Below are positions 33,279-33,343 of a DNA stretch of 64,000 nt, piece after piece. Position 1 is the stretch's first letter; each line of letters starts with the position of its first letter. Below the pieces are notes generated by a model, which did no database searches, was not told the DNA's origin, and worked only from the letters and a program-made list of their open reading frames with translations. The translations under genes and the position numbers were made by a program. This stretch comes from Eledone cirrhosa. Lineage: Eukaryota. The DNA lies in NCBI GenBank assembly GCA_964016885.1, contig OZ024753.1:38750001-38814000 (forward strand), written 5' to 3'.

Positions 33279-33343
33279 CCCTTCATCAGTTGTCTACTAC
33301 GAGTCACGGATGTATCAGCGCATTAGACAATACTTCTATCCGT
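33279..33343 (-). ncRNA. Second, degenerate hammerhead with the same non-permuted strand order
   Basis: Minus: ACGGAU(AGAA)GU-A-UUGUCUA ... GAUACAUCCGU ... UAGACAA-CUGAUGA-AGGG. Helix I is 7 bp; helix III is 8 bp with a 4-nt insertion; GAAA reads GAUA. Confidence 0.55.

Follow-up and report, generated by a model that had tools for sequence, protein, structure and literature searches.

The hammerhead-like motif at 33.3 kb of the window (the whole 64,000-nt stretch of DNA analysed here, C13:38750001-38814000, from a microsatellite-rich genome of 3.0 Gb) is best read as a decayed copy of a type SGC hammerhead that is carried by non-coding, Naiad-derived tandem repeats; we consider this description reasonably probable as a whole, including the prediction from sequence that intact copies of the motif cut themselves. 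In the SGC arrangement the cleavage-site block (S) is followed by the GAAA block (G) and then by the CUGANGA block (C). The order of site, GAAA block, and CUGAUGA with a 7-bp helix I, which the first-pass annotation of this DNA had proposed, was borne out, and the minus strand has all the motif pieces that it quoted, at 33343-33324, 33316-33306, and 33296-33283. The parts of the 33.3-kb copy and its two sister copies in the window are as follows.

33188..33414, minus strand: repeat family A monomer, 5'-truncated (about 225 nt) and inserted in (TA)n; the family unit is a non-coding Penelope-type sequence of about 620 nt
33354..33374, minus strand: leader hairpin immediately 5' of the motif, seen in the sequence
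33340..33345, minus strand: 5' strand of the distal helix, with its partner at 33302-33297; 81% of cells are paired and double changes occur in five of six pairs
33337..33339, minus strand: 3-nt side of a 3x6 internal loop, opposite 33308-33303; kink-turn-like, non-standard in family A
33331..33336, minus strand: block S, the 5' strand of helix III plus the GUA triplet; the predicted cut lies between 33331 and 33330
33334, minus strand, within block S: U>A private to the window copy, with loss of pair 16.3-15.3
33324..33330, minus strand: helix I strand 3' of the site, with its partner at 33296-33290
33317..33323, minus strand: linker that holds what is left of helix II; all 29 other copies have 2 nt more here
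33309..33316, minus strand: block G, the GAAA box (GAUA here, A14U) plus the 3' strand of helix III
33297..33302, minus strand: 3' strand of the distal helix, abutting helix I without a gap
33279..33296, minus strand: block C, comprising the helix I strand (33296-33290), CUGAUGA (33289-33283), and then AGGG
33213..33225, minus strand: conserved 3' motif RYAAC-N2-5-CAGY near insertion ends, from a comparison of tails
43703..44052, plus strand: family B copy with an SGC motif at 43889-43945; core intact, predicted site after C43895
18383..19109, minus strand: young, near full-unit family C copy with an SGC motif at 18517-18450; core intact, predicted site after A18503

Each core position is kept in 27 to 29 of the 29 other family A copies, and the window copy fails the core test in three respects. 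Position 33314 in the GAAA box is U where 27 of the 29 others have A, so that GAAA is restored at the family level; position 33334 is A where 27 of 29 have U, which breaks a helix III pair; and 2 nt of the linker between helix I and the GAAA box are missing that are present in all 29. Loss of A14 strongly reduces hammerhead cleavage, and since A14 is lost here the window copy is likely dead; we therefore regard the 33.3-kb motif as a likely decayed and inactive hammerhead copy, an outcome that the annotation had anticipated and that A14U, the broken helix III pair, and the 2-nt linker loss now support. Its further reading of AGAA as a 4-nt insertion did not survive comparison with the other copies, which hold four bases there too; the real change is the single substitution at 33334. 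The extended helix III that it drew (ACGGAU/AUCCGU) is indeed complementary within family A, but this is not the register that covaries across subfamilies, which comprises a 5-bp helix III, the 3x6 internal loop, and a 6-bp distal helix. The AGGG that follows CUGAUGA in the window copy is a helix II remnant of at most 2 bp, and the U, A, and G positions of the linker are invariant across subfamilies. By eye, other subfamilies also have a hairpin at the position of the leader hairpin, with different stem sequences. The (TA)n flanks noted earlier were found at 33415-33458 and 32999-33195. A DNA search gave 846 first-look candidates; 40 were scored, and the non-self matches among them were 84 to 92% identical.

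A descriptor requiring the site, GAAA, and CUGANGA matches the 43.9- and 18.5-kb motifs, and the 33.3-kb motif only when GAAA is relaxed. That these motifs exceed chance, as had been argued, is upheld by local dinucleotide shuffling (200 shuffles): the strict descriptor has two matches in the window against none in the shuffles, and the relaxed descriptor has two against a mean of 0.04 (maximum, 1). The 33.3- and 43.9-kb motifs are, however, not independent as the first-pass annotation had it; they belong to a single homologous superfamily as diverged subfamilies and share 18 invariant columns and a 3' motif. The annotation was right about the motif itself but overlooked the young 18.5-kb family, the genome-wide abundance of the repeats, how little of helix II remains, and the connection to Naiads. 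Two other elements in the window are recorded here as observations: an apparently intact two-ORF LINE on the plus strand (21317-26629), of L1/Tx1 type by appearance, with open frames of 625 and 1100 aa and endonuclease and RT motifs, and a MITE-like near-perfect palindrome with arms of about 90 bp (about 44345-44525) that adjoins the family B copy.

Across the genome, the two-block pattern GAAAY-N19-24-CTGAYGAWGG has 8042+7881 matches (15,923), compared to 29+42 (71) for a reversed control, and a family A pattern has 143 matches compared to 0. Among 59 distinct pattern hits, drawn blind to pairing from the start of contig C1 and 20 loci chosen for variety, 29 combine a complete S block with at least 5 bp in each of helices I and III, the remainder being truncated or mutated. 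Family C is young, its copies being 99 to 100% identical, and a search for it gave 2221 candidates. Contigs from three sequencing runs contain the repeat and variants of it, which speaks to presence only. Rfam gave no hammerhead among the 150 of 435 window matches listed, which were microsatellite-driven miRNA noise, and no hammerhead match to the family C unit at E values up to 10.

The SGC-ordered fold is almost certainly conserved, as judged from covariation among subfamilies. Alignment A1 has 15 rows, comprising 10 group medoids and five hand-picked copies, some of which came from a pairing-filtered list; for the medoids, 12 of 121 distinct hits were dropped as 5'-truncated or inverted, the other 109 fell into 25 groups, and groups with at least three members were used. 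Mean column identity is 69%. Over helices I and III and the distal helix, 89.5% of cells are paired and 15 of 18 pairs show double changes, counts that kinship among the copies inflates; no shuffle out of 500 matched the score, and the slid controls, which retain the kinship, reached at most 46.6%. Helix I (7 bp) is 89% paired with all seven pairs doubly changed, helix III (5 bp) is 100% paired with three of five doubly changed, and the distal helix (6 bp), which played no part in row selection, is 81% paired. The core (CUGANGA, GAAA, U16.1-A15.1, and H17) is invariant in 15 of 15 rows, albeit with the G and C blocks partly set by the search pattern. The earlier proposal of a non-circular hammerhead order with covarying helices is thus supported by the subfamily alignment.

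This fold is unusual in two places. Helix II has only 0 to 2 bp and is 41% paired in A1, the same as in the slid control; only pair 10.1-11.1 covaries, exchanging U-A and A-U in 10 of 15 rows. No conserved alternative helix II was found in the subfamily copies, nor, in 12 of them, any helix that connects stem I to stem II at their far sides. The distal helix is formed by the 5' leader pairing with the strand that leads directly into helix I, across the 3x6 loop. In the kink-turn consensus two helices flank a 3-nt bulge and then G.A and A.G pairs (the part of PMC2790904 consulted); of the 12 subfamilies with 3x6 geometry, 11 have the 3-nt bulge plus GA and 8 have N-GA on the opposite strand, so that 8 fit the kink-turn sequence, and in family A the short strand carries U in place of G. 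Loops of another geometry occur in families B1, B2, and F. Nested minimum-energy folds do not yield the pseudoknot, and family A RNA is predicted to be able to form a competing hairpin over the cut site.

The motif is carried by families A, B, C, and D and others, all of them non-coding units, mostly of 620 to 800 nt, with one motif per unit. In family C up to 30 units stand head to tail in an array, and among 30 family A loci a direct partial second copy is present in 7 and an inverted one in 6. Terminal copies end at (TA)n 65 to 185 nt downstream of the predicted cut, within a unit that continues in tandem copies; insertions therefore span the cleavage site, and the template must have been either uncut or rejoined. 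The motif RYAAC-N2-5-CAGY is present in 79 of 97 distinct tails, compared to 0 in antisense and a mean of 0.4 in shuffled sequences, and we infer that it is likely part of an RT recognition or initiation signal.

In four short arrays the units differ by 0 to 3 nt within an array and by 1.5 to 10 nt between arrays, as expected if each short array stems from one template. The 30-unit family C array (L086-L088, C2:54.546-54.568 Mb) shows block duplications with a period of 3, and its (CTT)n tract ranges from 11 to 25 repeats depending on the unit. A single-circle origin was rejected as a full account of this array on the grounds of the block duplications, which arose later, and not all arrays are therefore single copying events. 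At locus L093, a three-unit array of 526-nt units (7400-8670, plus strand) has CUGA changed to CCGA in every copy. Copying or duplication thus went on from a template with a mutant core, which bears on the need for cleavage.

The units probably descend from the 3' ends of Naiads, and the main evidence for this is the homology of the octopus Naiad_Obim and Naiad_Ovul ends to the units. By eye, these two published ends have the 3x6 loop and distal helix of the genome units and match families E and H over about 95 nt, with an identical 12-nt leader loop; the Naiad_Obim end was also likened to L098, L132, and their relatives. The consensi are those in the parts of File S5 of PMC8557442 covered here, where we read by eye around CTGATGA (19 places), CTGACGA (16 places), and CTGAAGA (18 places); the resulting counts are floors, because line breaks may hide matches and CTGAGGA was left out. 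At least 8 of 54 consensi have the S-G-C order with helices I and III paired (the near-identical coral families Amil, Aacu, and Anas, together with Obim, Ovul, and three unnamed ones in parts 12, 19, and 25). At least five of 54 have the C-S-G order and pair helices I, II, and III (Nbra-2 and Nbra-3, plus three unnamed consensi, in parts 13 to 16 within the nematode range). We note that these five CSG motifs are complete, with a 5-bp helix II, and that two of them belong to named nematode families. The remainder of the portion covered holds one further partial permuted motif and five ambiguous cases, and CTGAAGA places 4 to 33 of 43 in that supplement yielded no additional permuted motif. In the coral Naiads a linker-tail helix is visible by eye, and related Naiad motifs (L220 and one File S5 consensus) keep a helix II of 5 to 7 bp. 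A Penelope-like origin for the carrier of the motif, as first suggested, is thereby supported, and the SGC motif is likely the self-cutting RNA that was thought to be missing from some Naiads.

Metagenomic Naiads extend this picture to a minority of elements. Starting from a decayed Naiad in the genome, homology search with the piece found no match and phmmer found one stepping-stone; phmmer and homology search together led to full Naiad proteins with an N-terminal GIY-YIG, CxC, and DKA. Of the 80 metagenomic Naiad loci found, the 57 with at least 150 nt beyond the RT were tested with a strict six-permutation descriptor, which matched three ends on the sense strand (two SGC and one CSG), compared to 0 in antisense and 0 in 10 shuffled sets; two further ends are damaged coral-type motifs. 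No CUGANGA occurs within 1.5 kb after the RT in 49 of the 57 flanks. Because 49 of 57 lack CUGANGA and only three fit, permuted hammerheads characterize a subset of Naiads, not the clade. Rfam returned nothing relevant for the 20 of 80 loci submitted. One metagenomic Naiad, L217, has a C-S-G candidate 76 to 190 nt after its RT with long flanking helices and no direct helix II.

A parent element was sought within the genome itself. The annotation had expected that extending copies in the 5' direction would reach an RT/GIY-YIG ORF; extension led instead to a preceding non-coding unit, and no parent ORF lies upstream of the units in the loci or in five longer stretches. Naiads in the genome are present only as decayed remnants that are unlinked to the units, no autonomous element carrying the motif was found, and an exact core of the Naiad_Obim type has 0 matches. 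The motif is absent from the aligned 3' UTR of one remnant Naiad family, and a hammerhead-like stretch behind the decayed Naiad L236 was set aside as chance after 17 of its 18 copies were aligned.

Other Penelope-like elements (PLEs) were encountered near the units or elsewhere in the genome. Beside the family C array at L093 lies an inverted pair of PLEs with a C-terminal GIY-YIG and long open frames (1073-2419, minus strand; 4210-5412, plus strand). It was rejected as the parent on account of its own 1.2-kb 3' UTR without CUGANGA; this UTR has no Rfam match, and its end weakly resembles the conserved 3' motif. The element is a candidate mobiliser. At L258 and L262 (C3:119.10 Mb and C6:74.49 Mb), a Neptune-like PLE has a 1.4-kb C/A-rich 3' UTR whose end is an ordinary type I hammerhead with an additional A after the core. 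PLEs with a C-terminal endonuclease, either this type I hammerhead family or one without a hammerhead, could act in trans on family C.

Intact copies of the motif probably self-cleave, a judgment that partly counts cutting dependent on a helper. Weighing against the main reading are the near loss of helix II, the competing hairpin of family A, the small share of metagenomic Naiad ends that fit, and the near identity of family C copies in a genome whose Naiads are decayed remnants. In the mechanism that we favour, the 3x6 loop would fold as a kink-turn and bring the distal helix against helix I as a brace, which would stand in for the lost helix II. Self-cutting would divide tandem transcripts into RNAs one unit long, and by a model borrowed from known non-LTR retrozymes a host ligase would circularise them; whether the units pass through such a circular RNA intermediate is, by analogy, about an even bet. 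A Penelope-type RT-endonuclease acting in trans would then nick (TA)n, begin synthesis at an internal position close to the conserved 3' motif, and continue through the rejoined site, producing both truncated monomers and arrays.

The strongest competing account, which we nonetheless consider unlikely, is that the fold descends from a hammerhead but cuts negligibly or not at all, serving as a platform for RT binding or initiation with uncut tandem transcripts as the template. It is favoured by the near loss of helix II and by insertions that run through the predicted site to ends downstream of it, a layout that follows directly from an uncut template. It has a precedent in Poseidon, whose hammerhead mutants still insert in vitro with unprocessed RNA and internal initiation (the part of PMC11167929 consulted), and in the available sections of PMC4209133 metazoan PLE hammerheads cleave poorly in vitro; because of these two observations this account stays alive. 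Against it, the catalytic core and NUH site are invariant while the helix sequences change, which exceeds any obvious need of a scaffold, and the related Naiad motifs retain their 5- to 7-bp helix II.

Somewhat less probable again is cutting only with help, from a dimer or in trans between units, or from a protein clamp such as a kink-turn binder of the L7Ae/15.5K type or the RT itself. The hammerheads of metazoan PLEs and of amphibian retrozymes depend on dimers (PMC4209133 and PMC7229834, in the sections consulted), a helper protein was raised by Eckert et al. for slow SGC RNAs (likewise in PMC10085705), and the kink-turn-like loop is conserved here. Helix III is stable within a single copy, however, so that the usual need for dimers does not arise; only some subfamilies have a self-complementary linker, and the search for an alternative helix II described above gave none. 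Chance matches, or a one-off rearrangement passively amplified in an ordinary SINE or satellite, are very improbable and already largely refuted, for although a repeat multiplies any motif and kinship inflates covariation counts, three helices covary across subfamilies whose mean column identity is 69%, their pairing is lost in the slid controls, and the fold recurs in coral, cephalopod, other, and metagenomic Naiads (among the published consensi covered) with unrelated helix sequences.

Self-cleavage by intact copies would have wider implications. We give even chances to the proposition that animals hold a large and overlooked class of active non-circular hammerheads, including a cephalopod form of new architecture that does without helix II and has a kink-turn as its brace, that Naiads use rewired ribozymes, and that PLEs in general pass through self-cleaved circular RNA. 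If this is true, type SGC would occur in coral, cephalopod, and other Naiads as well as in the retrozymes descended from them (this genome has over 15,000 block matches), with type CSG occurring in nematode Naiads. The finding ties these rare permutations to the Naiad clade and so provides them with a genomic host and a likely job. The published Naiad consensi named above are immediately testable as permuted hammerheads, and searches limited to type I overlook a large retrozyme population. A hammerhead that functions with a helix II of 0 to 2 bp would be structurally new.

The closest structural relatives are the type SGC RNAs, whose order was named and whose cleavage was validated by Eckert, Friedrich, Weinberg and Weinberg (2023, PMC10085705). 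The available sections of that report describe 583 type SGC sequences from metatranscriptomes and two of type CSG, with none from the genome of a known organism. The units share with them (HRIMA-1 and the SGC variants) the S-G-C order, the full core, the crossing helices I and III, and a short linker between helix I and GAAA. They differ in being animal chromosomal repeats rather than metatranscriptomic RNAs, in having a helix II of 0 to 2 bp where the Eckert RNAs have a real helix II and an interaction helix between stems I and II, and in a distal helix that the 5' leader forms beyond a kink-turn-like loop. In that same report SGC-3 needs all four helices, and disruption of helix II abolished cleavage; its CSG descriptor requires a core-adjacent G-C pair, a further stem II, and linkers of at most 10 nt, and the motifs described here would fail it.

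The available part of the work on Naiads (Craig et al. 2021, PMC8557442) describes a preference for (TA)n, partial tandems, and inverted 5'-truncated copies, and reports no canonical hammerhead, only unfoldable cases labelled 'HHR_core' and 'HHR_half_core'; the lack served there as an argument that these ribozymes may be parasitic or not needed. The units resemble Naiads in their (TA)n targets and their tandem and inverted truncated layout, and the Obim and Ovul 3' ends have the same fold and appear homologous by eye, but Naiads encode an EN-RT ORF (N-terminal GIY-YIG, CxC, DKA, and C-terminal RT) whereas the units are non-coding. The minimal type I hammerheads in the pseudo-LTRs of canonical PLEs likewise lie near the element 3' end, with an extra nucleotide after CUGANGA being common (Cervera and de la Pena 2014, PMC4209133, in the sections consulted); they have the circular (CGS) order, a long helix II, and a weak helix III, the reverse of the units here. 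Within the literature searched, from which subscription papers and bioRxiv supplements mostly fell outside, no earlier report of permuted hammerheads in Naiads or retrozymes was found.

In organization, the units are most like the animal non-LTR retrozymes, which carry type I hammerheads and form circles (Cervera and de la Pena 2020, PMC7229834) and which derive from PLEs (Li, Clavereau and Pollet 2026, 10.64898/2026.07.22.740005), as given in the portions of these reports consulted. Both are short non-coding units with a single hammerhead that occur as monomers to long arrays and are proposed to be non-autonomous derivatives of PLEs. Non-LTR retrozymes are recognised and searched for by their type I hammerhead, in units mostly of 170 to 400 nt, whereas those described here have type SGC in units mostly of 620 to 800 nt with (TA)n targets; non-LTR retrozymes express circles, which the units here may also form. 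Taken together, these comparisons suggest that the units likely work as a retrozyme built on a type SGC hammerhead, but one that does without helix II and the helix between stems I and II.
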